Source: Candidatus Binatia bacterium
GTDB lineage: Bacteria > Desulfobacterota > Binatia > HRBIN30
Length of the DNA: 64,000 nucleotides
Reading direction: 5' to 3'
Assembly (NCBI GenBank): GCA_023150935.1
Contig: JAKLJW010000008.1
Span: 1,721-65,720, forward strand
Shown: positions 8,201 through 20,574 of the stretch, in pieces
Layout of the letters: each line of letters begins with the position of its first letter
How positions within the stretch are numbered: position 1 is the first letter of the stretch
The notes under the pieces: generated by a model
What the model saw: only the letters and a program-made list of their open reading frames with translations
What the model was told of the DNA's origin: nothing
Databases searched by the model: none
Program-made: the position numbers and the translations under genes

Positions 8201-8340
8201 GGTTCCCTCTCCCTCAACTTCTGCTTCGAAAATCCGGGAGGGCAAGCGCAATGGCGGGTAGCCATCGGGGTCGGCATCGGTATCGGAATCGGTATCGATT
8301 CGAATGCCTCGATCCCGATAGCGATTCCGACCCCGACCCC
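8201..8340. repeat. Composite repeat, left copy: palindromic hexamer-repeat element (core 8241-8340)
   Basis: The core ggcaagcgcaatggcgggtagccatcggggtcggcatcggtatcggaatcggtatcgat...cgatagcgattccgaccccgacccc is about 90 percent identical to 20032-20125, apart from a 6-nt indel. It consists of tandem ATCGGN hexamers on one arm and their complement on the other. Confidence 0.85.
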
Positions 8341-8403
8341 GCAGAGGGCACCACATTTTCATCCTCTTCAGACGACCGCCAGGTCATGGGCGGCATGTGC
8401 GGC

Positions 8404-8551: not shown

Positions 8552-9502
8552 TCAACAGCCCGTCGCACGATCGAGGAGCGGCACCGCCGCGTTCGCTACC
8601 AGAACCGCCAACGCCGCACCGTCGGGGTAAGGAGTGTAGTAGCGCACCGCCATCGTATAGACCGCCGCGAGCACCGCGAAGATCACCCGCCCCCGGGCCG
8701 AGAACGGCGCGGTCACCGGATCGGTGAGCATGAAGAAGGCCGCCAGCAAAGCGCCGCCGGATAGCAACTGCGCCAACGCATCCCCCGCCAGCCACGGGGC
8801 GTGCCCTGCCATTCTCGCGCCCGGCGGAAGAACCAATGCCAGCAACGCCACCCCGGCCAGATACGTCAACGGCACACGCCAATCGACGGTCCGCATCAGG
8901 ATCAAGCATAACCCGCCGCCGAGCACCGCCAGCGGCGCCGCCTCGGCAAGCGCGCCCGGGTGAAGCCCGAACAACAACTCCCTCACCCCCGGTGCCACCG
9001 CACCGATCTCCTTCGCCAACGGCGTCGCCGCACTCACCCCGTCGACACCCGACCACGCCGGCGCAAGGAGCCGCGCCGGAACGATGCCCATGAGAACCAC
9101 CCGCCCCACCGCCGCCGGGTTGAACACGTTGTTGCCGAGACCGCCGAACAGGTGCTTGCCGACGAGAATCGCCGCCGCCGCACCCACCGGCCCAAGCCAG
9201 ATCGGCCCACTTGCCGGCATCGACAGCGCCGTAACAATCCCCGCAACCACGGCACTGCCGTCGAACGCTCGCCGCGCATCGCACGCCAGGTCGAATACCC
9301 ACGCCACCACCACGGCCAGACCGAGCGGCACGGCCGCCGCCGTTCCGTATCGCCAGATCGCCACCACACAAATCGGCAATAGCGCCAGCACCACTTCGAA
9401 CATCAGCCGCCGCAGAGTCCGCCCGCTATGGAGGAACGGACCCGTCACCTCGCCGGCCGCGGCGGTCGGTTTCATCCATGCCGGCGGTCGCGCATCGGTC
9501 AT
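8552..9502 (-). CDS. rnfD: RnfD/NqrB-family membrane subunit
   Basis: ATG at 9502 overlaps the upstream stop (ATGA). ...GKHLFGGLGNNVFNPAAVGRVVL..., flavinylation-type motif VDGVSAATPLAKE, and FFMLTDPVTAP are typical of the NQR2_RnfD_RnfE family. Confidence 0.85.
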   Translation of the reverse strand: MTDARPPAWMKPTAAAGEVTGPFLHSGRTLRRLMFEVVLALLPICVVAIWRYGTAAAVPLGLAVVVAWVFDLACDARRAFDGSAVVAGIVTALSMPASGPIWLGPVGAAAAILVGKHLFGGLGNNVFNPAAVGRVVLMGIVPARLLAPAWSGVDGVSAATPLAKEIGAVAPGVRELLFGLHPGALAEAAPLAVLGGGLCLILMRTVDWRVPLTYLAGVALLALVLPPGARMAGHAPWLAGDALAQLLSGGALLAAFFMLTDPVTAPFSARGRVIFAVLAAVYTMAVRYYTPYPDGAALAVLVANAAVPLLDRATGC

Positions 9503-9906
9503 CGGAACACGTACGCCAGCGGCTGAAGCGCAAAGTACACGATCGCACACGCCGCCAGACCCATCGGCACGCCCTGTAACCGCACCGCCACTTCGTCACC
9601 GAACTGCAACCGCTCGACAATCGCATCGACCAGAGCCGTCGCCGCCACCCACAGCGCCATGGCTCGCAGCACTTCCCCGACACCTTCGTACTCCGGCACG
9701 GCAAGCACCAGAGCCACGGGCGCAACCCGGGGCGCCGCCAGCACGATCAGGCCCGCCGCCAGCGGGAATCCCAACCCGGCCGGCCACGGCCCAATGGCAC
9801 CCGCCCAGGCAATCGCCGGCGCCAGCACCGCCACCCAGCGACCCGGCCCCGGCCCGATCGACACGGCAACCGCGACGGCCAGGAAGACCAGGTCATACGC
9901 GGTCAC
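9499..9906 (-). CDS. Small polytopic membrane protein, unassigned (occupies an RnfE/A position)
   Basis: GTG at 9906 is preceded by GGGAGA. About 135 aa, Ala/Gly/Val/Leu-rich with about 4 hydrophobic spans. No RnfA/E signature seen. The stop overlaps the rnfD ATG. Confidence 0.5.
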   Translation of the reverse strand: MTAYDLVFLAVAVAVSIGPGPGRWVAVLAPAIAWAGAIGPWPAGLGFPLAAGLIVLAAPRVAPVALVLAVPEYEGVGEVLRAMALWVAATALVDAIVERLQFGDEVAVRLQGVPMGLAACAIVYFALQPLAYVFR

Positions 9907-10315
9907 GAGGTCTCCCGAGCGCAACGATCGCCACCGCGCACCCCAGCAGCAGCACGCCCGCCGTGCGGAATTGCAGCGGCACAAACAGCGCGACTGGCGG
10001 CCCGGCGACGGCCGCTACCAGTAGATTAGGCCACCGTCCCGCCAGTAGACCCGCCGCAACGATCGCCATCGCATTCACCCCCGGAACCACCGCCGCAGAC
10101 GCCCACGCCACGGCAATCCAGCGCAGAGGCGAGGCGTTCGCAACCGCTGCGCCAACGACCAGCGCCGCCGACCAGGCCAGCGCTCCCGACCACGACAGAT
10201 CGGCCACCGCCGGCAACAACGCAGCGACGACCCCGGCGCCTATCCACGCCTCCGACACCGGCACCGCCAACGCGCCAGCCGACTCGCCCGAGTTCACGGA
10301 GTCACCGCCTTCCAT
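9893..10315 (-). CDS. Small polytopic membrane protein, unassigned (occupies an RnfE/A position)
   Basis: ATG at 10315 overlaps the end of the upstream gene by 22 nt. 140 aa, Ala/Gly/Val-rich with about 4 hydrophobic spans. No motif recognised. Coding status rests on operon context and frame continuity. Confidence 0.45.
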   Translation of the reverse strand: MEGGDSVNSGESAGALAVPVSEAWIGAGVVAALLPAVADLSWSGALAWSAALVVGAAVANASPLRWIAVAWASAAVVPGVNAMAIVAAGLLAGRWPNLLVAAVAGPPVALFVPLQFRTAGVLLLGCAVAIVALGRPRDRV

Positions 10316-10776
10316 GCCTGCAGCCGTTCGTTGACGGCATCCACGACGCGCTGAGAGGACACCGTCGCACCGGTCACCGTGTGTACCACGAGAGGCGGCG
10401 TTGCCGCCCGGCCGCGGAACCGCTCGAGGAAGTCGCTCCGAAGCAGCGCGGTCCGATCGACTCCTTCGTGCCCGCGCACGAGCAGGACTTGCTCGATACC
10501 CCCTTCATCGACGACCACCGCGCCGCGCACGGGACCCTGCACACCGACGACATCGAAGAACAGCACCGCCGCCGAGCCGGCCCGGAACGCCGGCGGCCCG
10601 GACACGGCGACCGGCTCGACCGGACCGATCAGCGACTCCGCCAGTCGACGCGCAGCGTCGGGTCGCGGCAACGCCACGTTGAGTCCCAGTGCGCACGCCA
10701 GGAGCACGGCCCCCAGCCGATCCGCTCGCCCCACACCGGCCATGACCGCGGTCCGGACGCGGCTCGCCACAGTCAT
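10294..10776 (-). CDS. FMN_bind-domain protein (RnfG/NqrC-like), membrane-anchored
   Basis: ATG at 10776 overlaps the rnfC stop (ATGA). N-terminal anchor LGAVLLACALGL. C-terminal ...VVHTVTGATVSSQRVVDAVNERL carries the [ST]GAT[IV][ST] covalent-FMN motif of RnfG/NqrC. Confidence 0.75.
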   Translation of the reverse strand: MTVASRVRTAVMAGVGRADRLGAVLLACALGLNVALPRPDAARRLAESLIGPVEPVAVSGPPAFRAGSAAVLFFDVVGVQGPVRGAVVVDEGGIEQVLLVRGHEGVDRTALLRSDFLERFRGRAATPPLVVHTVTGATVSSQRVVDAVNERLQAWKAVTP

Positions 10777-11900
10777 GCACAACCCCCGGCCACGCGCGCG
10801 ACGAAATCGCGCTTCAGCACCCGCATGCGCGCCACCAGACGCCGCTCGGAAGGACAGACGAATTCGCACAGACCGCACTCGACACAATCGAGCACGGCCG
10901 CGGTCGGCCGCCGGATCAACCGGCTAACCGGCAGCTCGAACGGACAAGCCGCAAGGCACCGCCCGCACCTCACGCAACGCTCGTCCCGCCGTCCACTCAC
11001 CTCGTCGTGCGTCAGCGCCAGCACGGCAATCGTGCCGGCGGCGATCGGCGTCTCCGGCGCCGCGGCGTATCCCATCATCGGCCCACCGCAGATAACCGCC
11101 GCGACCCGCTCCATGTCGACCTCACAGCTCGCCAGTACGTGTCCGACCTCGGTGCCGATCGGAACGACGTAGTTGCCCGGCCGGCCGACGGCGCCCCCGT
11201 CCACGGTGATCACACGATCGACCAGGGGACGGCGTTCGTTGACCGCACGGTGGATCGCCCGGATCGTCTGCACGTTCAGCACCACGGCCCCGACCGCAGG
11301 CGGACGACCGCCCCGCGGCACCTCGCGCGCAAGCGTTCGACGAACGAGCATGCGCTCGTCGCCTCCCGGGTAGCCGCGATCGTCATCCACCACCAGCGCG
11401 CGCGCGGCGCCGACCGCCGCAACCGCCAACCCGGCCCCCGCCTCGATCTCCGCGCCATGCTCGGCAAGCACCCGGCTGTCGCAGGTCACGTACGGTTCGC
11501 TTTGCAGCGCGTTGACGACCACCGTATCGAGGCCCGGCCGCGAGGCGACGCGCGAGAGCTTGAGGTAAGTGGGAAACATCGCCCCGCCCATGCCCACCAC
11601 TCCGGCATCGCGCACGGCGTCGACGACATCCGCACCACGGGCAAGCGGCCGCACGACGTCCGGCTCGCCCGCAACCGCGATCTCGCCGCCGACGCCGACC
11701 ACGGTCCCGGATAGCGGCGAATGGACGCGCAACTGCCATGCGGCGCCTTGCGCCGATCGCGCCAGCAGGTCGCCGGCGCGGACGCGGTCGCCCGACTGCA
11801 CGACGCAGTGCAGGTCTCGCACCGGCAGGCGAACCAGCGGCGGCGCCACCAGCGGCGCGATGCGCGAGTCCGCCGTGCGCTTGCGAGCAGGTATTCTCAC
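10773..11900 (-). CDS. rnfC: RnfC-like subunit (NAD(H)/FMN-binding fold plus 2x[4Fe-4S])
   Basis: GTG at 11900 overlaps the cytochrome stop (GTGA). VVGMGGAMFPTYLKL, SEPYVTCD, and two ferredoxin motifs (CVRCGRCLAACP and CVECGLCEFVCP). The track start (12215) is an over-extension into the upstream gene. Confidence 0.85.
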   Translation of the reverse strand: MRIPARKRTADSRIAPLVAPPLVRLPVRDLHCVVQSGDRVRAGDLLARSAQGAAWQLRVHSPLSGTVVGVGGEIAVAGEPDVVRPLARGADVVDAVRDAGVVGMGGAMFPTYLKLSRVASRPGLDTVVVNALQSEPYVTCDSRVLAEHGAEIEAGAGLAVAAVGAARALVVDDDRGYPGGDERMLVRRTLAREVPRGGRPPAVGAVVLNVQTIRAIHRAVNERRPLVDRVITVDGGAVGRPGNYVVPIGTEVGHVLASCEVDMERVAAVICGGPMMGYAAAPETPIAAGTIAVLALTHDEVSGRRDERCVRCGRCLAACPFELPVSRLIRRPTAAVLDCVECGLCEFVCPSERRLVARMRVLKRDFVARVAGGCA

Positions 11901-12469
11901 GGTGCCCACTCCTCGATGCGATGGCACTCGGCACATTGCGCGGCGAAGTATTCCGCGTGGCATTCGAGGCACCCCGCGCCCCGTTCGAGCCCGGCGCTCG
12001 CATGTTCCTGTCGCGCACGCCGGTCCCGTCCCGGATCGCGTACCGATTCGGTATGCCACGGCGGCACCTGCCTGACGTGGCAGTCGCGGCACTGCTCGGT
12101 CCGATGGCAGCCAAGGCACTGAGGGCGATCGGCTACCGCCGCGGCGCCGTGGGTCAGCGTCACGAACGCCGCGTCGTGCGTGGCCTGCACGCGGCCCCGG
12201 TGGCACTCGGCGCAACCCTGCGACGCCTCGCCACCGCGCGGGACGGGATCGCGACGAACTGCATTGACGCCCGCCCAGGCAAACGCCGCGACCAGCACAA
12301 CGCCGGCCAGTCCCGTCGCCGCCACGGGTCCGAGCATGCCCCTACCGGCTCGCCCGAGAACGGCGGCCGAGCCCGGAGCAGGAAGCCTCGCGCGGAGACG
12401 ACGCGCGTTCGTTTCGAAGTCCGTGCCCATGCCCGGGTACCGTGTTCCCCGATCGGAGCGGTTTTTCAA
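11897..12469 (-). CDS. Membrane-anchored multihaem c-type cytochrome (5 x CXXCH)
   Basis: Hydrophobic anchor GPVAATGLAGVVLVAAFAWAG, followed by CAECH, CLGCH, CRDCH, CLECH and CAECH within about 110 aa. The size and anchor resemble the NrfH/NapC class, but with five sites. The start is uncertain (12469, or an internal ATG). Confidence 0.8.
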   Translation of the reverse strand: MKNRSDRGTRYPGMGTDFETNARRLRARLPAPGSAAVLGRAGRGMLGPVAATGLAGVVLVAAFAWAGVNAVRRDPVPRGGEASQGCAECHRGRVQATHDAAFVTLTHGAAAVADRPQCLGCHRTEQCRDCHVRQVPPWHTESVRDPGRDRRARQEHASAGLERGAGCLECHAEYFAAQCAECHRIEEWAP

Positions 12470-12559
12470 CCCGCCCGCAGCCCGAAGCGATCCGCGCCGT
12501 CGCCCCCGCGGGTCCGCCGAGCGACTCCTCGCCGGGCGGCATATCGACGCCCGCGGCGG

Positions 12560-15500
12560 CTAGCGCGGAACGCCGAGATCGATCCAGCGTACAACGGCCG
12601 CCAGCTCCTGCTCCGAAAGAGGATGCGCCGACGGATGCGGCCGGTCCCCTGCGATCGCGCCCGGTGCGTGCAACTCCCGACCCAGCAACTTCTCCGTCAG
12701 AGCGCTCTCGATCGCCAGTCCCTCGCCCGCCGTGTATCGGCGCAACGCCTCGTACGCCTCCGTGCCGGTCAGGTTCACCCCCGCCGCAGGGTCTTTGCCC
12801 GCGTGGCAGCTCGCACAACGCGCCTCGACGATCGGCCGCACATCGGTGTCGAAACTCGCCTCGCGCAACTCCACGGGTCCGTCGCCCGACCAGTTCGCAG
12901 GCATACGGCCCGTACCGCTTTCCTGGCTCCAGTTCGCCAGCGTCCGCGACGCCGAAGTCATCGCGTCGGGCCGGCGCAGGGTATCGGCCGGCCTCCCCGT
13001 CAGTCCGCCGTGACAGCCCCCACAGGTCTGCGCGAAGAGACGCCGCGGAATCGACAGGGTGTGCAGCTCGCCCGGCTGCGCGTACAGCCAGCGGTTCGGC
13101 GAACGCAACGCCATGCCCCGGCCGTTCAGCGACTGGAGGTCGAAAGCGAGCCCCGACGGCACCGCGGCGTAGAACGAACCGTCGGGTTCGAGCGGCAGCT
13201 CCGCGATAGTGACGCGCCTGTCGTCGCGCCATCCCACCAGTCTGACCCCCTGCACCTGATCGACGTCGGGCGTTTCCGTACCGCAGATCGGGCAGCTCGC
13301 CGTCGCGATGTGACGAGGCCCCACCGGCACGATCTGCTCGAAGAACGCATCGAGCAGCGGCAGGTCGGCCACGTGCAAGACGGCCGGCGTTCCTTCCGGA
13401 TAGCCGGCAAAGCCGCGCACGACCGCCGGCGCCCCGAACAGTCTCTCCTGCCGCAGCAACGACTTGCCCACCGGCTCCTTAAGACGGGCAACGACCGGGC
13501 GCGGCCACAGCTCGGAGTCGGGACCCCCGATCGTCGGCTCGCGCCGGAAAGCGCCGGGGGCGAACCCGTCCGGGGTCTGCCACGCCGGCGCCGGTACAAG
13601 TCGAAAGATGTCGAAGTCGGGATCGGCCCCCGCATCGGTCAGATCCAATGGCCCCTGCGCCCATGCAACAACGACGCTCCCGTCGGGCATCGGGAAAGGA
13701 TCGCGGTACGCACCGCCGGCCGACACACCGCGGGCCGCAGCCGTTGCATCGAGCGCCAACCACCCCGGCACGAAGCGCGGCAGCGACGTCACCGGCGTGC
13801 CGGTCGCATACGGATGATCGAGATTGTCGGTGGGGTTGTCGGCCTCGATCGTCGGGCCGAACTGGTGATCGGAAAGAATCAGACTGCCGCCCCACCACGA
13901 ATCGGCGTCACGGCCGATGCGGACCTCGAGGCCGTTCGGCAACTCGCGGTCGTCGGCGAAGATCGGCACTCCCGAACGGTTGCCGTTGTGGGTGTGGAAG
14001 TTCGAGCCGTCGACGTGGGTGCGGAACAACGCGCCGTTGAAGAACGGCCGGCCGTCCTGTTCTCCGGTACGCAGCGACGTGAACACGATCTCGCCCGACG
14101 ATCTCATCGTCGGACGCCTGACCTGACTCGGCGAGTAGGTCATACGCCGCAGCGTCGACCGCAACGTCTCCCGTTCCTGCCCCGGCGCCGCCAGTCGCAT
14201 ACGATAAGCGTCGAAACACGGCGCCAAGCGCGGCGTGCCTTCGATCACGTAGTGCGTCGTCGAGTCGATCGCGCGCGGCAGGGGCGCGTCGAGCAGCAGC
14301 TTCCCGGTTTCGTGACGCCGGACACGCCGCAGCGCTCCGGCGTTGCTGCCGCGAACGAAACGCACGGTACGACCGTCGTAGGCGCCCGCTCGCTCGGTGA
14401 GCTGGTCGTCGAGCAGCGCCGTCGAGCTGCCACCCTCGGCCTCGCCGAGGCGGCCGGCCGGACTCGACCGGCAAGCGCCCGCGTCGAGATTGGAGACGAA
14501 CACCAGCGCCGCGCGCGACAGGTCGTCGCCGTCACGGTCGTCCGGGTCCGGCACGTACAACGGATCGAGGAAGTGTACCGCCGGATCGGTCGAGAACGTC
14601 AATTGCCGCGCGGCACCGGTCGCGAGTTCGATCTCCCACAAGTCGAACGGTTCCTCCGCCGACCGGCGCATCGCAAAGACCACGCGGCGGGCGTCATAGC
14701 TCACCGCGGGCGCGCGCACGTCGGCCGCGGTGCCCTTGTGCAGGCCGGCCGTGAGGTTGACCTCCTCGCCGTCGCTGCGCCGCCAGTAGAGATCGCCCCC
14801 CGGCAGAAAGGTCAGGTCCTCGAAGAACCGTTCGGGGGAGTGACGTGGCCGGCGCACGAACACGAAGCCCCGCACCTCGCCGAGGGCGGCCGCCGTCCGC
14901 CGGCGGGCATCCTCGGCTTCGAGCCGCAGCCATTCGACCAGTAACCGGTAATCGGGATCGTCCTTGCGGAAAAAGTCGTTCCCGCCCTTGTGCACGATGC
15001 CGCCCTGCTCGACCGGGATGTTCTTGAGCAGTTGCTTCGACTGCTCGACGTCGCCGTCGAGCGCGACGAGCCGGGTGACCTTGCCGAGCATCGCCTGCCG
15101 GTTCGCACGGTGCATCGCGCCGGAAAACCGCGCCGGCAGGGCCGGCATACCGGCATCCAGCTTGAGGTCGTTGAAGGCCAGCTCGCCGTGGCAGTTGGCG
15201 CCCAGGCAGGTCTTGCGCACGAGGATCGGCGCGACCCGGCCGGCGAAGAACTCCTCGGTGGCACTCGGCGGGGACGGTGCGGACTGACGGGTGCGCGCCT
15301 CGACCTCGAGCCAGGCAACCAGTTCCGCGTAATCCGGGTCGTCGGGCGAGGCGAACACCTCCGGATGCCGCCAGTACCCGGAGTAGGCGGTCGCCAGCGG
15401 GGCGCGGGCAAGGAGACTTGCGGCCGGCGTTCCCGGATCGATCGGGCGCAGCGTGCGCGTCTGAGTCTCCCGGATCCGGGTACACCGATCGTAAGCGGCA

Positions 15501-15808
15501 CGCCGCTGGTCGGCCGAACCGATCCGACCTCGGTCGTCGGTGGGCCATTGCAGCAGCGCCGGCGCAGCGGCCTCCTCCTCCATCGCCCGGTAGCGCGCTT
15601 CGCGGACACCGTGACAGCCGCCGCAGCGCCGATCGAGGACGGGCACGACGCGCTCGCCGAACCGCGCCTCGGAATCCTCTTCAGCGACCGGCGGGGCATA
15701 GACCCACGGCAACCAGACCGAGCCTCCGGCGGCCGCGATCACAGCGCCGATTCCCAGTAAGGCGAGGGCCACGCCGCGCCGGCGTCTATGCGGTCGGGGC
15801 TCGATCAT
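12560..15808 (-). CDS. Large (about 1083 aa) exported haem-motif / PD40-like beta-propeller protein
   Basis: ATG at 15808 overlaps the apbE stop (ATGA). N-terminal anchor GVALALLGIGAVIAAAG. CGGCHG, CGGCHGG and CASCHAG lie in F..V.P[IV]L...C..CH contexts typical of Planctomycete-type cytochrome c domains. There is one CLGANCH (CX4CH). The segment DLYWRRSDGEEVNLT...VVFAMRR...DLWEIELATG looks PD40/TolB-like. Track residues 1-229 overlap apbE and were rejected. Confidence 0.75.
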   Translation of the reverse strand: MIEPRPHRRRRGVALALLGIGAVIAAAGGSVWLPWVYAPPVAEEDSEARFGERVVPVLDRRCGGCHGVREARYRAMEEEAAAPALLQWPTDDRGRIGSADQRRAAYDRCTRIRETQTRTLRPIDPGTPAASLLARAPLATAYSGYWRHPEVFASPDDPDYAELVAWLEVEARTRQSAPSPPSATEEFFAGRVAPILVRKTCLGANCHGELAFNDLKLDAGMPALPARFSGAMHRANRQAMLGKVTRLVALDGDVEQSKQLLKNIPVEQGGIVHKGGNDFFRKDDPDYRLLVEWLRLEAEDARRRTAAALGEVRGFVFVRRPRHSPERFFEDLTFLPGGDLYWRRSDGEEVNLTAGLHKGTAADVRAPAVSYDARRVVFAMRRSAEEPFDLWEIELATGAARQLTFSTDPAVHFLDPLYVPDPDDRDGDDLSRAALVFVSNLDAGACRSSPAGRLGEAEGGSSTALLDDQLTERAGAYDGRTVRFVRGSNAGALRRVRRHETGKLLLDAPLPRAIDSTTHYVIEGTPRLAPCFDAYRMRLAAPGQERETLRSTLRRMTYSPSQVRRPTMRSSGEIVFTSLRTGEQDGRPFFNGALFRTHVDGSNFHTHNGNRSGVPIFADDRELPNGLEVRIGRDADSWWGGSLILSDHQFGPTIEADNPTDNLDHPYATGTPVTSLPRFVPGWLALDATAAARGVSAGGAYRDPFPMPDGSVVVAWAQGPLDLTDAGADPDFDIFRLVPAPAWQTPDGFAPGAFRREPTIGGPDSELWPRPVVARLKEPVGKSLLRQERLFGAPAVVRGFAGYPEGTPAVLHVADLPLLDAFFEQIVPVGPRHIATASCPICGTETPDVDQVQGVRLVGWRDDRRVTIAELPLEPDGSFYAAVPSGLAFDLQSLNGRGMALRSPNRWLYAQPGELHTLSIPRRLFAQTCGGCHGGLTGRPADTLRRPDAMTSASRTLANWSQESGTGRMPANWSGDGPVELREASFDTDVRPIVEARCASCHAGKDPAAGVNLTGTEAYEALRRYTAGEGLAIESALTEKLLGRELHAPGAIAGDRPHPSAHPLSEQELAAVVRWIDLGVPR

Positions 15809-16851
15809 CGCAGCCATTGCAAGCGGTCGCCTTCGAGACGCAGGCCCCGCGACAGATGTACTCGGCCATCGCGATCGACGGCGAGAGCCTCGACGTCCGG
15901 CAGTGCGTCGGCCAGCGCAATCCCCCGTTCCCAGCCGAGCACGGCGATCGCGGTAGCCAGCGCGTCGGCGGCGGTGCCGTTGCCGGCGATCGCGGTCGCA
16001 CCGGTCACTTCGCGTGCCGGCCAGCCGGTGCGCAGGTCGACGATATGCTGATAGCGCGTGCCATCGACGGCGAAGAACCGTTCGTAGTCGCCGGAAGTGG
16101 CGATCGCGCAGTCGGTGGCCGGGAGCGTTGCGAGCAGGGTGTCGCGGCGCGGATCGCGCACCCCGACGATCCACGGGGCACCGTCCCGAGAGCCGCCGAC
16201 GACGACGTCGCCACCCGCATCGACGATGAAATTCGGGAAGCCGATCTGCCGCAGCCGCGCGGCCATGCGGTCGGCGGCGAAGCCCTTGCCGATGGCGCCG
16301 AAGCCGAGCTTCATGCCCGCACGGGCAAGGCCGATGCGGGCGCCTTCCTGCCGAATGCCCCGGTAGCCGACCAGTGCCTGGCGTGCGGCGATTTCCGCGC
16401 CGGCCGGCAGCCTTCGGGTCAGCCGCGCCCGCTCCCACAACTCGAAGAGCGGTCCCCCGGTGACGTCGAAGGCGCCGTCGCTGCGGCGCGCCCATTCAAT
16501 CGATCGCTCTACCAGCTCCTGCAGTTCGGGTCCGACGGCCACCGTCGCGGCCCCGGCCGCGGCATTGATCGCCGACGTCTCGCTGCCCGGCTGCCACTCG
16601 CTGATGCGCGCCTCGATCGCGGCGGCCAGGTCGAGCGCCTCGTTGGCGGCCGCGGCCGCGCGCGGCTGAGCGCCCGCTTCCGCCCACACCGACACCTCCA
16701 CCAGCGTACCCATCATGGGCCGCGCCACCCGGACGATCGCTCCGGCCGAACCGGGCCGGCCGCGCCGCTCGGCAACGCCGAGCGCGACCAGCACGGCAAC
16801 GCCCACCGCGACCGCCGCTATTCGATAGATAGGACGTACCGTGTCAGGCAT
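15805..16851 (-). CDS. apbE: FAD:protein FMN transferase (ApbE family)
   Basis: ATG at 16851. MMGTLVEV..., SEWQPGSETSAINAAAG, FDVTGGPLFELW, KLGFGAIGKGFAADRMA, IATSGDYERFF and HIVDLRTGWP form the ApbE pattern. Confidence 0.9.
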   Translation of the reverse strand: MPDTVRPIYRIAAVAVGVAVLVALGVAERRGRPGSAGAIVRVARPMMGTLVEVSVWAEAGAQPRAAAAANEALDLAAAIEARISEWQPGSETSAINAAAGAATVAVGPELQELVERSIEWARRSDGAFDVTGGPLFELWERARLTRRLPAGAEIAARQALVGYRGIRQEGARIGLARAGMKLGFGAIGKGFAADRMAARLRQIGFPNFIVDAGGDVVVGGSRDGAPWIVGVRDPRRDTLLATLPATDCAIATSGDYERFFAVDGTRYQHIVDLRTGWPAREVTGATAIAGNGTAADALATAIAVLGWERGIALADALPDVEALAVDRDGRVHLSRGLRLEGDRLQWLR

Positions 16852-19800
16852 TCGATATCCCAGACGGTCAGGTGCGACGTGACGCCGTGTGTGTCCGGCA
16901 ACCCGTCCCGCTCGTTGAGTCCCCGCTCGCGTTGGTCGGGCCGGTCGGCGTCGGGCCGCGGAGCCGGCAGGCGGCCCAGCGCGGGATGGTCGGGAGTGCA
17001 GAGCACCTCGCGCAAGCTGACCGCGTGTCCGTGGTGCAGAAACCGCGGCGGCCGCGCCCACAGGCCGCGCAGCGACGGCGCCACGAAGAACCCTTCGCGC
17101 TCCTCGACGCGCCCGCCATCGTCCGGATCCCAGGGGCGAACGTAGCCGTTGATCGCGTCGATCCGGTCAGCGCTGACGAGGGTGTGCGCGTCGTCTCGGG
17201 CGGCCGGTGTGACGAGCGGCGGGAAGGCCCGGTTCTGATTGTACGCGTGTTGTTTGTCGGTAAAGGCCGGCGCCGGATGACAGCCGGCGCAGCCGACCCG
17301 CGGGCTTTCGAACAGCGCCCGTCCGTGCCGCACCATCGGGTCGCCGGGATCGACCGGGTTGGGCAGCAGGCGCGGCTCGCCGCGCTGGTAGTCGCCGATG
17401 AACTTCTGCAGCTCGCGGAACGAGTAGGCGCGGCCGAGGTATCTTGCCGAGATCCGTGCAAAGTGCCGGTCGCGCCGCTTGAGCAGGTCGGCCAGCGTCA
17501 CGCCTTCCCGGTTCCACGCCCGGCCGGTGGCAACCACGATCGTGTCGGCCGAGGTCGCGTAACGGGCGGCGTCCTCGGCGGTGACACGGATGCCGTCGAA
17601 ATCGCCCGCCGGCGTGTGCCCCTGGAAGTCGACCAGCGGGTTGTGCTCCATCATCATGGTCAAGGGCTCGTCGATCGACAGTGTGCCTTCGACGAAGAAG
17701 GGGACCTTCTGAACCAGCGCCCGGAGGTCGGGAACCTCACGGCTGCCTCCCGTACGCTCGTCGCCGTGGCGGCTCTGGCCCATAACCTGGCTGACGCTCC
17801 ACTGCTTCCCGTCGGAGGTATCGCGGTAATGGCAATGAACGCAGCTCTGATCCTGGTCGACCGAGAACACGCTGGTCTGCACGAAGAACTCGCCGCGTTC
17901 GAAGTCAGTGGCCGGGAACGCTTGGGGTAGCCGCGATACCGAGCGGGTGACGGTTGTACCGTCGCGCATATCGACGAACGTGACGCTCTCGTCGAGGTGG
18001 TTGGCGACCACCAGCGTCGACCCGGCGACCGCCAGACCCGTAGGTTTGAGGCCGGTGGCGAAGACGCGACCGGGGCGCAGTCGCCCGGACGGCGGCGCAT
18101 CGACCGAAACGTGCCATTCCTGCACTTCGAAGGTGCCCGACATGGAGACGAACAGGCGGTCGCCGTCCGCGGCGATCTGTTCCGGGAAGGCGCCGGCGAC
18201 GCGCAGAAGATCCGGCGGCAGATCGCCTTTGACGTCGCCGGGAAGGGCTTCGAACGAATCGGACGTGTAGCGAGTGAAGGTCTCCGAAGCCGTGTACACA
18301 TCGACGCGCTCAGCGCCCGGATCGAGGATGACGATGTCGTTGCCGATGTCGCGGAACTTCTCCTGCGCGGTGCCGTCGACGGCATCGAACCGACCGAGCG
18401 GCCGTTGCCTGTCGAGCGGCAGCGGCCGGGCCGTGGCGGGATCGCGCCACAGCGTGAAATCGGCGTTCGGCTCGCGGGAATCGAGGCTCTCGCGACCGGC
18501 GTCGTGGTCGCCAGGGTGTCCCGAACCGACGTTGAGCGTGGCGAACACGAGTCGGCCTCGCGCCCAGGCGATGTCGTTGACCGGCGAACGGGTGAAGATG
18601 CGCCGCGTCTCGCGCCGCGAGCCGAGATCGACCACCGACACGTCGAGCGACCCGGTGTTGGCGACGTACAGCGTGCTGCCGTCCGGCGCGATGGCCATGT
18701 CGCGCGGTTTGTCGCCGACGGAGATGCCAGGCCCCTCGGTGCCGTCGGCGATCCAACGGCGCAGCGCTGCGAAGTCGGGATCGCGGTCCGGTTCCGGAAA
18801 CACGACGCCGCCGGGGTGATGCTTGCCGTCGATGCTGTCGGCACGGCCACCGTGACGCGTTGCGGTCACCGCAAGGAGAAGCGGACTGAGTTCCGGCGCT
18901 CCGGCGCGCGCGTGGACGACCGTGCTCCGAAAGATCTGCCGGTCGTCGCGACCGGCATAGAACCCGCCGGCCGCATAGAGGTGGCAGCTCGCCGTGCCGC
19001 AGCGGGCGCGCAGGACGCCTTTGATGCCGTCGGGACCGCCCGTTTGCGGGGGCGGGGCGATTTCCTCGAGCGGGGCGAAGCCGCAGCGCACGCACCGGGT
19101 CGCCGCCGGGTTGGCATCGCGCCATCCACACATGGGACACTTGCGCCACCCGGTCGGGTGGCGCCGTGGCGTACCGAAAAACCGGCGGCGGTCGAAACCC
19201 AGCTCGCGCAGCCGACCGGAGAGCCGGTCGTCGTCCCACGTCAGGTCGACCACGAGCACCTGGTTCGTCCAGAAGTTCGAGACGTAGACCGTGCGCCCAT
19301 CCGGCGCGAAGATCAGATCCTCGGCGTAGAACGGCACGGGGATGCTGGAGACGACGCGGTCGGTGGCGACGTCGATCACGGATAGGTAGTTGGAGAATCG
19401 ATTGGTGACGACGACCCAGCGACCCGTGGGGTGCAGAGCGATTCCGTACGGGTGGGACCCGACGGCGACGCGGCCGATCTCGCGCCGGCGGGGCACGTCG
19501 AAGACAACGACCTCCGACCCCGGAGCGATCTCCTTGCCGGCGAGCGTCACGTAGGCCCTGGCACCGTCGAGGGTGGCCGCGACGCGGTAAGGCCGGGTGC
19601 GAAGCGGCTGGCGGGGCAGCGACGGATCGGGGTTGGCGACGGGCAACAGGTTCCGGGGCGCCTCCGGGGCCGAGCTATCGTCGGGCGTGCCTGCAAGGTC
19701 AACCGGCGGTGCCACCGGCACCGCCCGCCCGGCATCGTGGTTGCCGGCAGAATTACGGTACAGCGAAACCCCGATGCCGGTAACGAGCGCGGCGCACGCC

Positions 19801-19892
19801 AGGACGGCGAGCCAGAGATCTCCCCTGTCTTGGCGGTCGATCGGCCGCCGTCGAGGGCGAGGGATTCGACTTGATCCCGGAAGCTCGAACAT
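16818..19892 (-). CDS. Large (about 1024 aa) anchored YVTN-type beta-propeller protein with a C-terminal di-haem peroxidase/MauG-like region
   Basis: ATG at 19892. Anchor LWLAVLACAALVTGIGV. YVTN-like blades (GSHPYGIALHPTGRWVVVTNRFSNYLSVIDVATDRVV..., YVSNFWTNQVLVVD, LYVANTGSLDVSVVD). Zinc-ribbon-like CPMCGW...CVRCGF. One CGTASCH (CX4CH). CVHCHYRD and CAGCHPAPAFTD sit in a CCP/MauG-like tail. Confidence 0.75.
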   Translation of the reverse strand: MFELPGSSRIPRPRRRPIDRQDRGDLWLAVLACAALVTGIGVSLYRNSAGNHDAGRAVPVAPPVDLAGTPDDSSAPEAPRNLLPVANPDPSLPRQPLRTRPYRVAATLDGARAYVTLAGKEIAPGSEVVVFDVPRRREIGRVAVGSHPYGIALHPTGRWVVVTNRFSNYLSVIDVATDRVVSSIPVPFYAEDLIFAPDGRTVYVSNFWTNQVLVVDLTWDDDRLSGRLRELGFDRRRFFGTPRRHPTGWRKCPMCGWRDANPAATRCVRCGFAPLEEIAPPPQTGGPDGIKGVLRARCGTASCHLYAAGGFYAGRDDRQIFRSTVVHARAGAPELSPLLLAVTATRHGGRADSIDGKHHPGGVVFPEPDRDPDFAALRRWIADGTEGPGISVGDKPRDMAIAPDGSTLYVANTGSLDVSVVDLGSRRETRRIFTRSPVNDIAWARGRLVFATLNVGSGHPGDHDAGRESLDSREPNADFTLWRDPATARPLPLDRQRPLGRFDAVDGTAQEKFRDIGNDIVILDPGAERVDVYTASETFTRYTSDSFEALPGDVKGDLPPDLLRVAGAFPEQIAADGDRLFVSMSGTFEVQEWHVSVDAPPSGRLRPGRVFATGLKPTGLAVAGSTLVVANHLDESVTFVDMRDGTTVTRSVSRLPQAFPATDFERGEFFVQTSVFSVDQDQSCVHCHYRDTSDGKQWSVSQVMGQSRHGDERTGGSREVPDLRALVQKVPFFVEGTLSIDEPLTMMMEHNPLVDFQGHTPAGDFDGIRVTAEDAARYATSADTIVVATGRAWNREGVTLADLLKRRDRHFARISARYLGRAYSFRELQKFIGDYQRGEPRLLPNPVDPGDPMVRHGRALFESPRVGCAGCHPAPAFTDKQHAYNQNRAFPPLVTPAARDDAHTLVSADRIDAINGYVRPWDPDDGGRVEEREGFFVAPSLRGLWARPPRFLHHGHAVSLREVLCTPDHPALGRLPAPRPDADRPDQRERGLNERDGLPDTHGVTSHLTVWDIECLTRYVLSIE

Positions 19893-19987
19893 CCCCCAAC
19901 CGCCGTAGTCCCGTGAGGAGTTGAAGACAGCCAGCATATGCGACGCGAACGAAGGGGCGGTCAAGTACCTCATCCCGCTGCGCAGTC

Positions 19988-20125
19988 AGGTCCCTCTCCT
20001 TCGAACATTGGGATGGGTGGGACCGGGGATGGGCAAGTGCAATGGCGGGCAGCCATCGGGGTCGGCATCGGCATCGGTATCGATCCGATTCCCTCGATCC
20101 CGATAGCGGTTCCGACCCCGACCCC
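19988..20125. repeat. Composite repeat, right copy: palindromic hexamer-repeat element (core 20032-20125)
   Basis: Homologous to 8201-8340 and in the same orientation. The core is ggcaagtgcaatggcgggcagccatcggggtcggcatcggcatcggtatcgat...cgatagcggttccgaccccgacccc. Confidence 0.85.
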
Positions 20126-20130
20126 ACGGC

Positions 20131-20190
20131 AACAGCACCCCACCGCGGAGTCAGGTCCCTCTCCCAGCGGGAGAGGTCAGGTGAGGGGAT
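20131..20190. repeat. 60-bp inverted repeat, left arm, flanking the DUF559 fragment
   Basis: aacagcaccccaccgcggagtcaggtccctctcccagcgggagaggtcaggtgaggggat. The reverse complement of 20453-20512 matches at 56/60 positions. Contains an internal 8-bp hairpin cctctccc/gggagagg. Confidence 0.9.
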
Positions 20191-20444: not shown

Positions 20445-20452
20445 TCGATCTT

Positions 20453-20512
20453 ATCCCCTCACCTGTCCTCTCCCGCCGGGAGAGGAACCTGACTCCGCGG
20501 CGGGGTGCTGTT
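20453..20512. repeat. 60-bp inverted repeat, right arm
   Basis: atcccctcacctgtcctctcccgccgggagaggaacctgactccgcggcggggtgctgtt. Pairs with 20131-20190. Confidence 0.9.
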
Positions 20513-20533
20513 ACCGTGCTGTGGCGGGCATCG

Positions 20534-20566: not shown

Positions 20567-20574
20567 GCCGGTGG

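Follow-up and report, generated by a model that had tools for sequence, protein, structure and literature searches.

The locus and its conservation

Nine minus-strand open reading frames at positions 8552 to 19892 of a 64-kb Binatia window (the window being the whole stretch of DNA analysed) combine Rnf-type genes with an ApbE gene and large haem proteins, which raises the question of what redox system they encode. In an initial annotation they had been read as a periplasm-facing redox machine; its coordinates for all nine co-directional genes were borne out, and independent gene calls on public Logan contigs gave the same nine genes, with gene 3 starting at 15817 (1085 aa). The features are, in order of transcription:

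20031..20127, (-), upstream copy of a bracketing direct repeat, ~100 nt
16818..19892, (-), gene 1, membrane-anchored homologue of the hydrazine synthase (HZS) beta-gamma fusion; alternative start 19973 (1051 aa) in public calls
15805..16851, (-), gene 2, ApbE FAD:protein FMN transferase with an N-terminal membrane anchor
12560..15808, (-), gene 3, 1083 aa, membrane-anchored HZS alpha homologue, from profile and structure matches
11897..12337, (-), gene 4, small membrane-anchored multihaem cytochrome c, five CXXCH, 146 aa
10773..11900, (-), gene 5, RnfC, cytoplasmic NADH/FMN module with two [4Fe-4S] motifs
10294..10776, (-), gene 6, RnfG-like membrane-anchored periplasmic FMN_bind protein
9893..10315, (-), gene 7, conserved 140-aa polytopic membrane protein
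9499..9906, (-), gene 8, conserved 135-aa polytopic membrane protein
8552..9502, (-), gene 9, RnfD, last gene of the operon
8240..8342, (-), downstream copy of the bracketing direct repeat, ~100 nt

Adjacent genes overlap by 4-34 nt at seven of the eight junctions, the sole exception being that between genes 3 and 4, where there is a 222-nt gap if gene 4 begins at the ATG at 12337. This is most likely its start, given the public calls of 146 aa, the homologues of 143-149 aa and an upstream AGGGG motif; the TTG at 12469 used initially is less likely, and the accompanying statement that no gap exceeds about 90 bp holds only with that TTG, while the five CXXCH motifs and the anchor ascribed to this cytochrome stand. 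The same gene order recurs, far beyond chance, in about 30 loci of other phyla, all of them MAGs (as are the best 75 genome loci), and cluster loci come from Acidobacteriota, Planctomycetota, Verrucomicrobiota, Bacteroidota, Myxococcota and Gammaproteobacteria as well as from the Binatia window, about seven phyla. In a 76%-identical relative the cluster is kept and the flanking genes differ. Together, the overlapping junctions, the shared order and the retention of the cluster with changed flanks make it very likely that the nine genes are one conserved functional unit. The bracketing repeat has only two copies within the window, identical at 90 of 103 columns of their pairwise alignment, and there are Logan contigs that carry just the nine genes at a length of 11.72-11.76 kb, nearly the distance from one copy to the other (11.69 kb).

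Only three genes of the window contain at least two CXXCH motifs and all three (genes 1, 3 and 4) lie in the cluster, where their haem motifs total twelve. A single clear N-terminal hydrophobic helix is present in each of genes 1, 2, 3 and 4, with a weaker one in gene 6, and since c-type haem motifs need export, these helices point to a periplasmic location of the haem proteins. The large proteins thus look extracytoplasmic, as first proposed, being membrane-anchored and having conserved haem motifs. Homologues of gene 4 have 3-5 CXXCH, the last three forming the conserved core, and Pfam gave weak Cytochrome_C7 and NapC/NirT matches for it and nothing more.

A truncated Rnf module

Profile-HMM searches recovered the ApbE, RnfC, RnfD, FMN_bind and YVTN-repeat assignments made initially, and the motifs quoted for them were present (GMGGAMFPT and two CxxCxxCxxxCP in RnfC, TGATVSS in the FMN_bind protein, GVSAATPL in RnfD). 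Gene 5 scores 265 bits against TIGR01945 (cut-off 246), has RnfC_N, Complex1_51K, SLBB and Fer4 domains and is 30% identical to E. coli RsxC over 392 aa, and gene 9 scores 212.5 bits against TIGR01946 (cut-off 207) and 269 bits against PF03116, with 33% identity to E. coli RsxD. Gene 6 passes PF04205 (27.9 bits, cut-off 22) but matches rnfG models over its C-terminal 25 residues only, at 14-18 bits against cut-offs of 102-230. Neither the window nor the related loci L001-L080 gave a tblastn match to RsxA, RsxB or RsxE, in agreement with the initial view that RnfA, RnfE and RnfB are not recognisable here; the Rnf part of the operon is truncated, RnfB being absent from the window and the related loci.

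Genes 7 and 8 come after the RnfG-like gene, the position of rnfE and rnfA in canonical rnfCDGEAB, with gene 7 taking the rnfE slot. Their profiles (A2 and A3) have matches in 21 and 24 related loci respectively, low-GC Bacteroidota being among those of gene 7. In line with the initial annotation, they are not ordinary RnfA or RnfE, as neither matches a Pfam or NCBIfam family and neither has a conserved Cys for the RnfA/E [2Fe-2S] cluster. Gene 7 also had no PDB match, and hhalign comparisons of it with E. coli RsxA, RsxE and gene 8 were negative. For gene 8 the only PDB match at E<=10 was A. woodii RnfA (9eri_A) residues 79-183 (E 6.3e-4, 24.5 bits; the best of 3000 shuffles reached 11.7), a likeness to one PDB sequence only which was not reproduced with E. 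coli RsxA (just 7.5 bits), where hhalign picked out the same C-terminal motif at E 0.005. In the RnfA alignment the ‘TTNC’ ligand position reads PRxAP. Judging from this borderline likeness to the C-terminal two-thirds of RnfA, gene 8 could represent a cofactor-less RnfA/E relic; a Candidatus Binatia bacterium has the exact sequence, annotated as hypothetical protein.

Compared with Rnf (RnfABCDGE; A. woodii 9ERK, C. tetanomorphum 7ZC6), the operon shares an RnfC with an FMN site and two [4Fe-4S] motifs, an RnfD with the conserved flavinylated-Thr site, an anchored periplasmic FMN_bind subunit with a flavinylation motif, dependence on ApbE and the two small polytopic membrane genes after the G-like gene. 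It differs in being without RnfB, in having the RnfD gene last, in the size of the small membrane proteins (135-140 aa against about 190-230 aa), which have no [2Fe-2S] Cys ligands and no Rnf-Nqr model match, and in that its periplasmic FMN presumably passes electrons to c-type cytochromes and not back to the cytoplasm. Electron exchange between NAD(H) or ferredoxin and the periplasm had been proposed; the anatomy supports this for NAD(H), but with RnfB and the [2Fe-2S] ligands absent a ferredoxin link lacks support, and with no ferredoxin coupling evident the ion-pumping cycle is probably inoperative.

It could be argued that this is an ordinary ferredoxin:NAD+ Rnf with rnfA, rnfE and rnfB elsewhere in the genome and the cytochromes as accessories, like MmcA in Methanosarcina. 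Our view covers 64 kb of the genome, and Rnf operons with added cytochromes are known (PMC12174285). We nevertheless regard this as very unlikely, as in 21-24 loci of different phyla the slot after the RnfG-like gene holds two conserved membrane genes that are not of Rnf type, and RsxA-, RsxE- or RsxB-like genes lie within 10 kb in none of the related loci L001-L080. A sister clade with the same alpha/beta-gamma pair, moreover, has RnfD fused directly to a NuoF-like NADH module (Complex1_51K, SLBB, NADH_4Fe-4S; seen in about ten loci, in seven of them at full length) and also encodes a ferredoxin-like protein, but no RnfA, RnfE or RnfB, which by analogy lends independent support to RnfD as a putative NADH-fed exporter. 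M. acetivorans does similarly combine an Rnf-type complex with a multihaem c-type cytochrome moving electrons on outside the cytoplasm, but there all six Rnf subunits and ferredoxin coupling are kept, and the cytochrome is an addition and does not replace half of the complex.

The fusion of the sister clade parallels the published NQR/RNF-like two-subunit system with RnfD::NAD-binding fusions, for which one-way electron export has been proposed (Meheust et al. 2021, PMC8238504; Huang et al. 2024, PMC11334425). Like the operon, that system is a partial Rnf/Nqr that keeps a single transmembrane path, with proposed one-way export from NAD(P)H to the extracytosolic side by RnfD-like and flavinylated RnfG-like proteins. 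Its RnfD, however, is fused to a PF00175 NAD-binding domain and is without the flavinylation Thr, whereas the operon has a separate and complete RnfC, keeps the RnfD flavinylation site and adds two membrane subunits, a multihaem cytochrome and a defined terminal enzyme.

ApbE and its candidate targets

Gene 2 scores 261 bits against Pfam ApbE, covering the full profile length, and ApbE occupies this position in most clade-A loci. A loose ApbE motif occurs among the nine proteins only in RnfD, the RnfG-like protein and gene 3. The RnfD motif (D154-GVSAAT160, nt 9023-9043) aligns to DGISQAT of RsxD, its terminal T/S conserved in 17 sequences, and that of gene 6 (H132-TVTGAT138, nt 10363-10383) lies in a (S/T)GA(T/S)(V/I)SS stretch conserved in 24 sequences. 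The third site is:

12947..12967, (-), candidate third flavinylation site, gene 3, D948-A-M-T-S-A-S954 (DxxTxAS)

This site is 15-21 residues past the alpha-I-like CXXCH, in a low-pLDDT loop (residues 944-953) of the AF2 model. D948 and A953 never vary, and at least 90% of sequences have S954; the motif is found in homologues as low as 29% identity and is lost only in a subgroup with a CxxCM haem motif. Its conservation suggests that gene 3 may be a third ApbE target. In one 1444-aa protein (P0043) ApbE is fused to the alpha-like protein.

Homologues of hydrazine synthase

The two large proteins had been described as propeller and CCP-like proteins, and their propellers and haem domains were confirmed; this description missed that both are, from profile and structural matches, HZS alpha and beta-gamma homologues and not generic propeller/CCP proteins. 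Gene 3 begins with a TM helix and a roughly 300-aa extension bearing haem motifs C62xxCH and C201x4CH, followed by a TolB-like propeller, an HZS_alpha middle domain (PF18582, 29.4 bits, cut-off 26.6) and haem motifs C929xxCH and C998xxCH, which align with HZS haems alpha-I and alpha-II. The initial counts of five CXXCH in the small cytochrome and three in gene 3 were right, as was a di-haem tail in gene 1, but in each large protein an additional Cx4CH motif had been overlooked, C201-x4-CH being the fourth in gene 3, where all four are invariant among 37 homologues. Its A1 profile matched 5c2v_A over residues 82-766 in five collinear stretches (E 1.5e-21), and the AF2 model (pLDDT 88.3, pTM 0.88) had 5c2v_A as its best Foldseek match (E 2.9e-27, 923 columns; the second was TolB at 3e-10). 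All of this identifies gene 3 as a full-length HZS alpha homologue.

Gene 1 runs from an N-terminal TM helix through a 7-bladed YVTN propeller (69 bits by HMM) to a C-terminal di-haem domain (CVHCH, CAGCH), the propeller being split by an insert that holds a Zn-ribbon-like CxxC...CxxC as well as a third haem motif, C298-x4-CH, which is invariant or nearly so in homologues. Its family profile matched HZS gamma in the PDB, and there was a weak match to the Scalindua beta-gamma fusion model hydrazine_BC. The alpha-like and beta-gamma-like genes adjoin in all three clades wherever the contig reaches that far.

The C-terminal domain of gene 1 is within the CCP/MauG/MbnH superfamily, and the operon might therefore be an NADH-driven periplasmic peroxidase in which this domain reduces H2O2 like bacterial cytochrome c peroxidase, fed by the Rnf-derived wire independently of the respiratory chain. 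The CCP_MauG score of 17.8 bits, with weak MbnH and RoxA-like matches, would fit this, but it lies under the gathering score of 25.6, and the family profile search of the PDB that found HZS gamma returned neither a CCP nor a MauG chain at E<=1. CCP and MauG have a catalytically important Trp between their haem motifs, and no Trp is conserved there in gene 1 homologues. The strictly co-conserved 1083-aa alpha-like partner would also be superfluous, and an NADH-level wire is unlike the electron donors of CCP, which are high-potential cytochrome c or cupredoxins. We consider a peroxidase unlikely.

With HZS itself (Kuenenia 5C2V) the operon proteins share an alpha-like propeller, the HZS_alpha middle domain and two haems at the same positions, together with a beta-like 7-bladed propeller fused to a gamma-like di-haem domain as in the Scalindua beta-gamma fusion, the two genes always being adjacent. 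They differ in their low identity (about 16-22%; 16% for gene 3 and HZS alpha by structural alignment), in both being membrane-anchored and in their additional haem domains, of which the alpha-like protein has two and the beta-gamma-like protein one. The electron donor of HZS is the quinol-linked ETM; that of the operon would be an Rnf-derived module. None of the three HZS catalytic hallmarks checked was present: the alpha-I haem motif is a canonical CXXCH with T937 at the alpha-Tyr591 position and no Tyr four residues past the alpha-I His, the gamma-like domain has no Cys between its two haem motifs and so no equivalent of gamma-Cys165, and the window has no hydrazine dehydrogenase (HDH) or HAO gene. 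An anammox reading was rejected on these grounds, and HZS-type NO chemistry is not simply transferable.

A genuine hydrazine synthase, supporting anammox-like metabolism outside Brocadiia, is hence scarcely credible, even though the alpha and beta-gamma architecture is common to both and divergent HzsA in ten phyla from cold-seep MAGs has been so interpreted (PMC11828985). In a 1.84-billion-protein library all 150 matches listed scored at least 128 bits, compared with 79 bits for HZS alpha in the PDB search, and the same negative conclusion was reached for other HZS homologues (PMC12758564).

Pairs of HZS homologues outside anammox bacteria have been described as clades I-IV (Hagglund et al. 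2025, PMC12758564), hzs-like genes (PMC10732223) and divergent HzsA (PMC11828985). Like the operon, these have co-localised alpha-like and fused beta-gamma-like genes outside Brocadiia, with HZS catalytic residues not conserved. In clades I-III alpha is upstream of beta-gamma, with an FG-GAP/CRTAC1 gene between them in clades I-II, and clade I has eight extra haems (PMC12758564). The operon, by contrast, has the order beta-gamma, ApbE, alpha, then the cytochrome and truncated Rnf, and none of the published pairs is reported with Rnf or ApbE genes.

Neighbourhood and possible substrates

NnrS or NnrU is encoded within 10 kb of the cluster in four independent lineages, an association limited to a few loci, and a periplasmic dCache-type sensor kinase travels with it in four phyla; these are weak hints of a link to NO, and the window has no nitrogen-cycle neighbours. 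The cluster is present in MAGs labelled Maribacter, Reichenbachiella and Akkermansiaceae, which are mostly aerobic groups, so that an anaerobic nitrogen-cycle role is not obvious; such carriers would also suit the peroxidase discussed above.

With so many haem motifs the operon could instead be an extracellular or mineral electron conduit for metal reduction or oxidation, the haem proteins being wires only, and extracellular electron transfer is known to involve ApbE-flavinylated systems in some cases (PMC8238504). This appears highly improbable given that the cluster has no conserved association with an outer-membrane porin-cytochrome or a secretion component, that every haem protein is inner-membrane-anchored and that the propeller and buried-haem architecture is homologous to that of a small-molecule enzyme.

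Proposed mechanism

On balance, we favour a membrane-bound, periplasm-facing redox machine in which an Rnf-derived flavin wire serves an HZS-like acceptor, the substrate possibly being an N-oxide. RnfC would oxidise NADH in the cytoplasm via FMN and two [4Fe-4S] clusters, RnfD would carry the electrons through the membrane from riboflavin to covalent FMN, and the covalent FMN of the RnfG-like protein would take them at the periplasmic side, the in-operon ApbE attaching the covalent FMNs. Solved Rnf complexes show an unbroken route from NAD(H) to the periplasmic side by way of the RnfC Fe-S clusters, RnfD riboflavin, RnfD FMN and RnfG FMN (PMC12174285). The second half of the Rnf circuit (the RnfA/E [2Fe-2S] cluster, RnfB and ferredoxin) appears to be gone, with the two small cofactor-less membrane subunits in its place, which would make the flow one-way. 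The small anchored 3-5-haem cytochrome would then pass electrons to a complex of the two anchored HZS-like proteins, where a buried haem may transform a small molecule, by analogy with HZS. We infer the physical assembly of these proteins, as we do the direction of flow and the substrate. The likeliest reaction would be reduction of NO, hydroxylamine or a related N-oxide, and not hydrazine synthesis; an N-oxide or hydroxylamine as substrate is a tentative suggestion from this analogy, while electron flow from NADH to the periplasm is probable.

Electrons might conversely flow inward, a strongly reducing periplasmic compound such as hydrazine or hydroxylamine being oxidised at the HZS-like haems and NAD+ reduced via the RnfG-like protein, RnfD and RnfC. 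Rnf electron transfer is reversible (PMC12174285) and RnfC reduces NAD+ in canonical forward Rnf. Inward transfer to NAD+ would, however, oppose the membrane potential, so that the donor would have to lie below about -320 mV; the window has no nearby protein of the octahaem HAO/HDH type, and the homologous HZS gamma site is reductive, making this distinctly unlikely.

The initial reading of the locus is supported overall, including its view that the gene set is not a described system, as no description of the nine-gene set or of an Rnf and HZS-like combination was found in the literature. The novelty is the combination, each half having published precedents in partial NQR/RNF-like exporters and in HZS homologues outside anammox.

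Gene content and boundaries of the cluster

Translation of the nine minus-strand ORFs gave the proteins and motifs that the initial annotation had described, confirming its observation as a whole, and its interpretation (an Rnf-like core wired to large extracytoplasmic haem and propeller proteins) was supported and could then be sharpened. Profile searches identified most of the nine proteins, with the two small ORFs (genes 7 and 8) left without any family match; the flavin transferase call for gene 2 held (Pfam ApbE, 261 bits), as did the YVTN repeats of gene 1 and the cytochrome c domains of gene 3, while the PSCyt1 and PD40 domains proposed for gene 3 gave no Pfam match at E<=0.1. A motif scan also revealed two previously uncounted Cx4CH haem motifs, at C201 of gene 3 and C298 of gene 1.

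The G+C content of the window is about 68-70% and so spurious long ORFs are plentiful, but independent gene calls on public Logan contigs gave the same nine genes, differing in length for gene 1 (1051 amino acids), gene 3 (1085 amino acids) and gene 4 (146 amino acids). With gene 4 starting at the ATG at 12337 (giving 146 amino acids), seven of the eight gene junctions overlap, by 4-34 nt, and a single gap is left:

12338-12559, non-coding: 222-nt spacer between gene 3 and the probable start of gene 4

This gap shrinks to 13 nt in a relative with 76% identity, while genes 3 and 4 of other phyla either adjoin or overlap. An Rfam search of 7.5-21 kb in the window, spacer included, found no match, a promoter scan gave no promoter-like site and terminator-like sites occurred at chance frequency. 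That genes 7 and 8 are genuine was shown by family profiles built from gene 7 (A2) and gene 8 (A3), which recovered homologues in 21 and 24 related loci respectively, some of them from low-GC Bacteroidota, in which ORFs can be called without ambiguity.

Genes 3 and 1 are distant homologues of hydrazine synthase

Gene 3 carries the middle domain of the hydrazine synthase (HZS) alpha subunit (HZS_alpha, 29.4 bits against a Pfam threshold of 26.6), and HZS alpha was the sole match when its single sequence was searched against the PDB. The gene 3 family profile (A1, 37 homologues) matched 5C2V_A with an E-value of 1.5e-21, in five collinear stretches between residues 82 and 766 of 782, and both C-terminal haem motifs aligned with HZS haems alpha-I and alpha-II. 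A structure search with the AlphaFold2 model of gene 3 (pLDDT 88.3, pTM 0.88) again returned 5C2V_A as the top match (E 2.9e-27, 923 columns), followed by TolB (3e-10), which the propeller of gene 3 resembles. The propeller, middle domain and two c-haems of HZS alpha are thus all found in gene 3, and the homology is collinear and full-length.

Gene 1 combines the architectures of the HZS beta propeller and the gamma di-haem domain. Its matches to the NCBIfam models for hydrazine synthase beta, gamma and the beta-gamma fusion were weak, but its family profile (A4, 39 homologues) reached HZS beta with an E-value of 2.7e-21 and HZS gamma with one of 2.9e-10, the gamma match having three collinear stretches comprising both haem motifs and a C-terminal DxHGxTSHL motif. 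The initial annotation had read this C-terminal region as a di-haem CCP/MauG-like tail, but PF03150 scored below its cut-off (17.8 against 25.6 bits), the A4 profile matched no CCP or MauG chain in the PDB at E<=1, and the inter-haem tryptophan is not conserved, the only conserved tryptophan between the two motifs being W698, ten residues past the first. The CCP/MauG assignment was rejected.

Several features separate these proteins from HZS itself. Both are anchored by an N-terminal helix, gene 3 has an extension of about 300 amino acids carrying two extra haems, and gene 1 has an inserted segment with a haem and a Zn-ribbon-like element. The iron of HZS haem alpha-I is ligated by Tyr591, at +4 from the motif histidine, which itself binds zinc instead, and a third covalent haem link is made by gamma-Cys165 (PMC12758564). 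In gene 3 there is no tyrosine at +4 of the alpha-I-like motif (C929GGCH933 is followed by GGLTG, making +4 T937), nor is one conserved there among about 75 homologues. From C687 to C868, the stretch between its two C-terminal haem motifs, gene 1 is free of further cysteines, and the family alignment shows no conserved one there either; the gamma-Cys165 link is thus missing. The 64-kb window encodes no HDH or HAO-type octahaem partner, and two or more CXXCH motifs occur in only three genes, all of the cluster. On these residues, and on the absence of HDH and HAO from the window, the anammox reading was rejected, and with the anchors and extra haems they mark the pair as a distant HZS paralogue and not the anammox enzyme.

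The Rnf part retains RnfC, RnfD and an RnfG-like protein

RnfC (gene 5) scored 265 bits with TIGR01945 (cut-off 246) and has RnfC_N, Complex1_51K, SLBB and Fer4 domains, with the NuoF-like FMN/NADH domain and two [4Fe-4S] motifs of RnfC from Rnf complexes. RnfD (gene 9) scored 212.5 bits with TIGR01946 (cut-off 207); at sequence level it keeps the threonine for covalent FMN, its DGVSAAT aligning with DGISQAT of E. coli RsxD, and the terminal T/S of the motif is conserved in 17 sequences. Identities to E. coli RsxC and RsxD are 30% and 33% respectively, and both proteins are bona fide RnfC and RnfD. Gene 6 is more divergent, with 27.9 bits for FMN_bind (cut-off 22) and a TGAT motif but only 14-18 bits with rnfG family models (cut-offs 102-230); its family keeps (S/T)GA(T/S)(V/I)SS in 24 sequences.

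The remaining Rnf subunits were not found. Searches by tblastn with E. coli RsxA and RsxE gave no match in the window nor in the related loci from other genomes (L001-L080), and RsxB matched only the ferredoxin domain of RnfC in the window and nothing in those loci. On this evidence the Rnf part appears truncated rather than merely divergent. The canonical order is rnfCDGEAB, so the position of genes 7 and 8 after the G-like gene mirrors that of rnfE-rnfA. The Rnf-Nqr model was matched by neither gene nor by any homologue, even at E<=10, and no cysteine is conserved in either family; since the RnfA/E [2Fe-2S] site is made by four cysteines (PMC12174285), a site of that type cannot exist in these proteins.

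For gene 8 the sole PDB match of the A3 profile at E<=10 was RnfA of A. woodii (9ERI_A, residues 79-183, E 6.3e-4), with a score of 24.5 bits against a maximum of 11.7 in 3000 composition-matched shuffles. By hhalign against RsxA, the C-terminal motif RERLxxxxVPxxxxGxPI of gene 8 was aligned, the same as in the A. woodii RnfA match, and the RnfA cysteine ligand (“TTNC”) lies opposite PRxAP of gene 8. The score against E. coli RsxA was 7.5 bits, within the shuffle range, and gene 8 is therefore not called RnfA but only a possible relic; we lean towards the view that it may be an RnfA/E relic that has lost its cofactor. A search of a word-indexed database for gene 8 homologues returned only the identical protein (Candidatus Binatia bacterium, hypothetical protein) and no bridge to RnfA.

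Gene 7 was considered as RnfE and rejected, the A2 profile matching only unrelated transporters in the PDB and hhalign finding no similarity to gene 8 or to RsxA and RsxE of E. coli. In six loci of Myxococcota and Gammaproteobacteria (L022, L025, L027, L029, L033, L034) gene 7 has an N-terminal soluble extension of about 70-90 amino acids, in which “LGxxTxxxLExAL” repeats are abundant and which has no confident Pfam match; gene 7 of the window is without it.

Distribution of the cluster in three clades

About 85 full-length homologues of gene 3, at 47-76% identity, are all unnamed or “hypothetical”, and the homologues of gene 1 show the same pattern. In a library of 1.84 billion proteins the A1 profile matched 159 clusters at E<=1e-30, a number that rose to 1303 when the limit was relaxed to E<=1e-10. 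Scanning 185,579 species-representative genomes left 75 distinct loci, every one from a MAG, and tabulation of the nine proteins across them resolved three clades.

Clade A (about 30 loci, gene 3 at 48-62% identity) has the order gene 1, [ApbE], gene 3, gene 4, RnfC, FMN_bind, [gene 7], gene 8, RnfD and is found in Acidobacteriota, Planctomycetota, Verrucomicrobiota, Bacteroidota, Myxococcota and Gammaproteobacteria; loci of the Vicinamibacterales type, of which one variant (P0016) is widespread, have no ApbE or gene 7 within the cluster, and one locus (L028) is without the Rnf genes. In clade B (gene 3 at 33-40% identity) the order is gene 3, gene 1, two proteins with FGE-sulfatase domains, ApbE, a gene-4-like cytochrome, a 738-amino acid RnfD fusion and a Fer2_4/Fer4 protein. 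The fusion, also present in about nine further loci (L036, L038-L041, L046, L047, L053, L054), looks like a second, independent “half-Rnf” design. The most distant loci, with gene 3 at 29-35% identity, form clade C (L063-L078, L080), where the HZS-like pair occurs with a thioredoxin-ApbE fusion, DUF4266 and DUF3570 and with no Rnf genes.

L079 19905-22121: clade B RnfD::NuoF-like fusion, 738 amino acids (Complex1_51K, SLBB, NADH_4Fe-4S)
L080 15809-18145: clade C, HZS-like genes with a thioredoxin-ApbE fusion, DUF4266 and DUF3570

Wherever the contig reaches, the alpha-like and beta-gamma-like genes are adjacent in all three clades, as expected for subunits of one complex.

A candidate third substrate for ApbE

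RnfD and gene 6 both carry a conserved Dxx(S/T)xA(T/S) motif and so, against expectation, does gene 3. The looser flavinylation pattern [DNH]xx[ST]xA[ST] has exactly three sites across all nine proteins (3,770 residues), namely those of RnfD and gene 6 and D948AMTSAS954 of gene 3, a count that in itself proves nothing against a chance expectation of about 0.65 sites by our own estimate. In the homologue alignment the gene 3 motif is invariant or nearly so; it sits 15-21 residues past the alpha-I-like haem motif, where the model has a loop of low confidence, and is kept as DxxTxAS in each of the three clades, even by homologues of 29% identity. The only loss is in a subgroup (L055-L058, L060) whose alpha-I-like haem motif reads CxxCM rather than CxxCH, and this joint loss fits a functional tie between that haem and the motif. 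An ApbE::gene-3 fusion also exists (the homologous protein P0043).

Flavinylation of gene 3 would explain the place of ApbE between genes 1 and 3, the fusion in P0043 and the retention of ApbE in clade C without RnfD or RnfG. We hypothesise that DxxTxAS of gene 3 is a third flavinylation site, and if so it would represent a new kind of ApbE substrate in a flavo-cytochrome enzyme of a new type.

Flanking repeats and mobility

On either side of the cluster lies one copy of a direct repeat about 100 nt long (20031-20127 and 8240-8342; 90 of 103 alignment columns identical), and the window contains no third copy. The distance between the copies, 11.69 kb, is close to the length of public contigs (11.72-11.76 kb) that carry just the nine genes, and repeat and contigs together suggest the boundary of an island or cassette. 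Other features lie on either side:

20211-20450, minus strand: truncated DUF559 (Vsr-like endonuclease) ORF just upstream of the cluster (76 bits, profile positions 46-108 of 109)
19985-19999, 20150-20164 and 20479-20493, direct and inverted orientation: GGAGAGGGACCTGAC motifs around the DUF559 ORF
7946-8170, plus strand: HicA toxin gene directly past the downstream repeat
31324-31728, minus strand: BrnT toxin gene, farther off
20431-23175 (plus), 20575-23310 (minus) and 21530-23353 (minus): overlapping long ORFs on both strands of the approximately 2.7-kb region 20500-23170

The ORFs of 20500-23170 matched no Pfam family and have an atypical codon-position GC pattern. Elsewhere, the 76%-identical relative has the cluster between different flanking genes, and in a Saprospiraceae copy (L087) transposase, group II intron and toxin-antitoxin genes adjoin it. 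Taking together the direct repeat, the DUF559 and HicA flanks, the contigs of about 11.7 kb, the changed neighbours and the Saprospiraceae transposase, the nine-gene cluster looks mobile. Other neighbours in the window, including transporters, acyl-CoA dehydrogenases, an L,D-transpeptidase and a transketolase, are housekeeping genes and give no functional clue.

Proposed electron path and substrate

In solved Rnf complexes electrons pass from the RnfC FMN over two [4Fe-4S] clusters to the RnfD riboflavin, and then from the covalent FMN of RnfD on the periplasmic side to the covalent FMN on the swinging periplasmic domain of RnfG; only after RnfG do they reach the RnfA/E [2Fe-2S] cluster and RnfB (PMC12174285). 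The cluster keeps exactly the first half of this chain and has lost exactly the second, which is most simply read as a one-way wire linking cytoplasmic NAD(H) with the periplasm. Such a wire would run through RnfC, RnfD and the RnfG-like protein, with the small anchored multihaem cytochrome (gene 4, whose family has 3-5 haems) partnering the swinging FMN domain in the place of RnfA/E and passing electrons on to the HZS-like complex. This logic is independently supported by clade B, where RnfD and a NuoF-type NADH module are joined in a single protein, and by published fusions of RnfD to an NAD-binding domain, which together with an RnfG-like partner have been proposed to export electrons from NAD(P)H one way (PMC8238504, PMC11334425). 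The homologous gamma site of HZS is described as reductive (NO to hydroxylamine) and flow inward to NAD+ would be energetically costly, and on these grounds we infer that electrons would move from NADH to the periplasm. The parts may also assemble into one complex.

Gene neighbourhoods give weak hints of the substrate of the HZS-like complex. Four independent lineages have an NnrS or NnrU gene no more than 10 kb from the cluster (one NnrS being fused to ScdA_N):

L001 952-2949, L080 19052-20197, L045 1819-2865 and L086 20565-21167: NnrS or NnrU genes

Such genes are linked to the response to nitric oxide. NnrS was rejected as a consistent neighbour, being found in few lineages only, and is therefore kept as a weak hint of NO. 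A co-travelling sensor kinase with a periplasmic dCache/HK_sensor_dom_bact domain adjoins the cluster in four phyla, with none in the window:

L001 4391-6804 and L086 17563-19524; also in L022, L024, L005, L008, L031 and L041: dCache-type sensor kinases

The sensor domains are related across phyla in most loci (25-58% identity; in L031 by Pfam only), while the kinase cores vary (HisKA_3 or HisKA), and the co-travelling periplasmic sensor points to a small periplasmic ligand. NO as the substrate is weakly suggested. A fuller reading, which we offer tentatively and consider rather improbable, would make the cluster a new class of periplasmic N-oxide enzyme system, in which a ferredoxin-independent, FeS-less Rnf derivative feeds electrons of NADH to a twelve-haem complex of HZS ancestry, the alpha-like subunit of which carries an ApbE-installed covalent FMN beside its catalytic haem, catalysing a reaction outside assigned enzyme families and spread horizontally over at least seven phyla. 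An example under that N-oxide reading would be periplasmic NADH-dependent reduction of NO via hydroxylamine to ammonium. The phyla reached by horizontal transfer would include a Vicinamibacterales lineage, whose protein is also in Tara Oceans data.

Relation to known systems and significance

The NQR/RNF-like system of Meheust (2021) has an RnfD-like domain fused to a PF00175 NAD-binding domain, whereas RnfD here is 316 amino acids with PF03116 only and RnfC is separate; the clade B fusion differs as well, being RnfD::Complex1_51K/NADH_4Fe-4S. The partial NQR/RNF-like exporters (PMC8238504, PMC11334425) have a different architecture from the present cluster, and the sole cytochrome-bearing variant mentioned in a 2025 Rnf/Nqr review is the full complex with MmcA. 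HZS-like genes outside anammox have been reported (PMC10732223, PMC11828985, PMC12758564), and their function is disputed: PMC11828985 reads the homologues as anammox potential in ten phyla, whereas PMC12758564, describing four clades in which key residues are not conserved and of which I-III have FG-GAP or ABC-transporter neighbours, rejects the anammox reading on residue grounds and assigns no function. None of these papers mentions Rnf or ApbE with these HZS-like genes (PMC12758564 cites Rnf in a reference only), and no description of the nine-gene arrangement was found in the literature searched. As the parts are known and the arrangement is undescribed in that literature, we place the cluster within flavinylation-based extracytosolic electron transfer, with an unusual terminal enzyme.

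The cluster is the first concrete functional context that we have found for non-anammox HZS homologues, an enzyme seemingly hard-wired to an NADH-oxidising module, and this context argues for a reductive, non-anammox role. For the disputed function of these homologues it gives a testable handle, a direct assay with NADH and a candidate substrate, and it warns against using such HZS-like genes as anammox markers in metagenomes. It would also be a natural dissection of Rnf, a “half-Rnf” in which the NADH-RnfC-RnfD-RnfG half persists without RnfB or the [2Fe-2S] cluster, possibly with a cofactor-less RnfA relic in its old position, and as such bears on which half of Rnf/Nqr does what and on how respiratory modules recombine.
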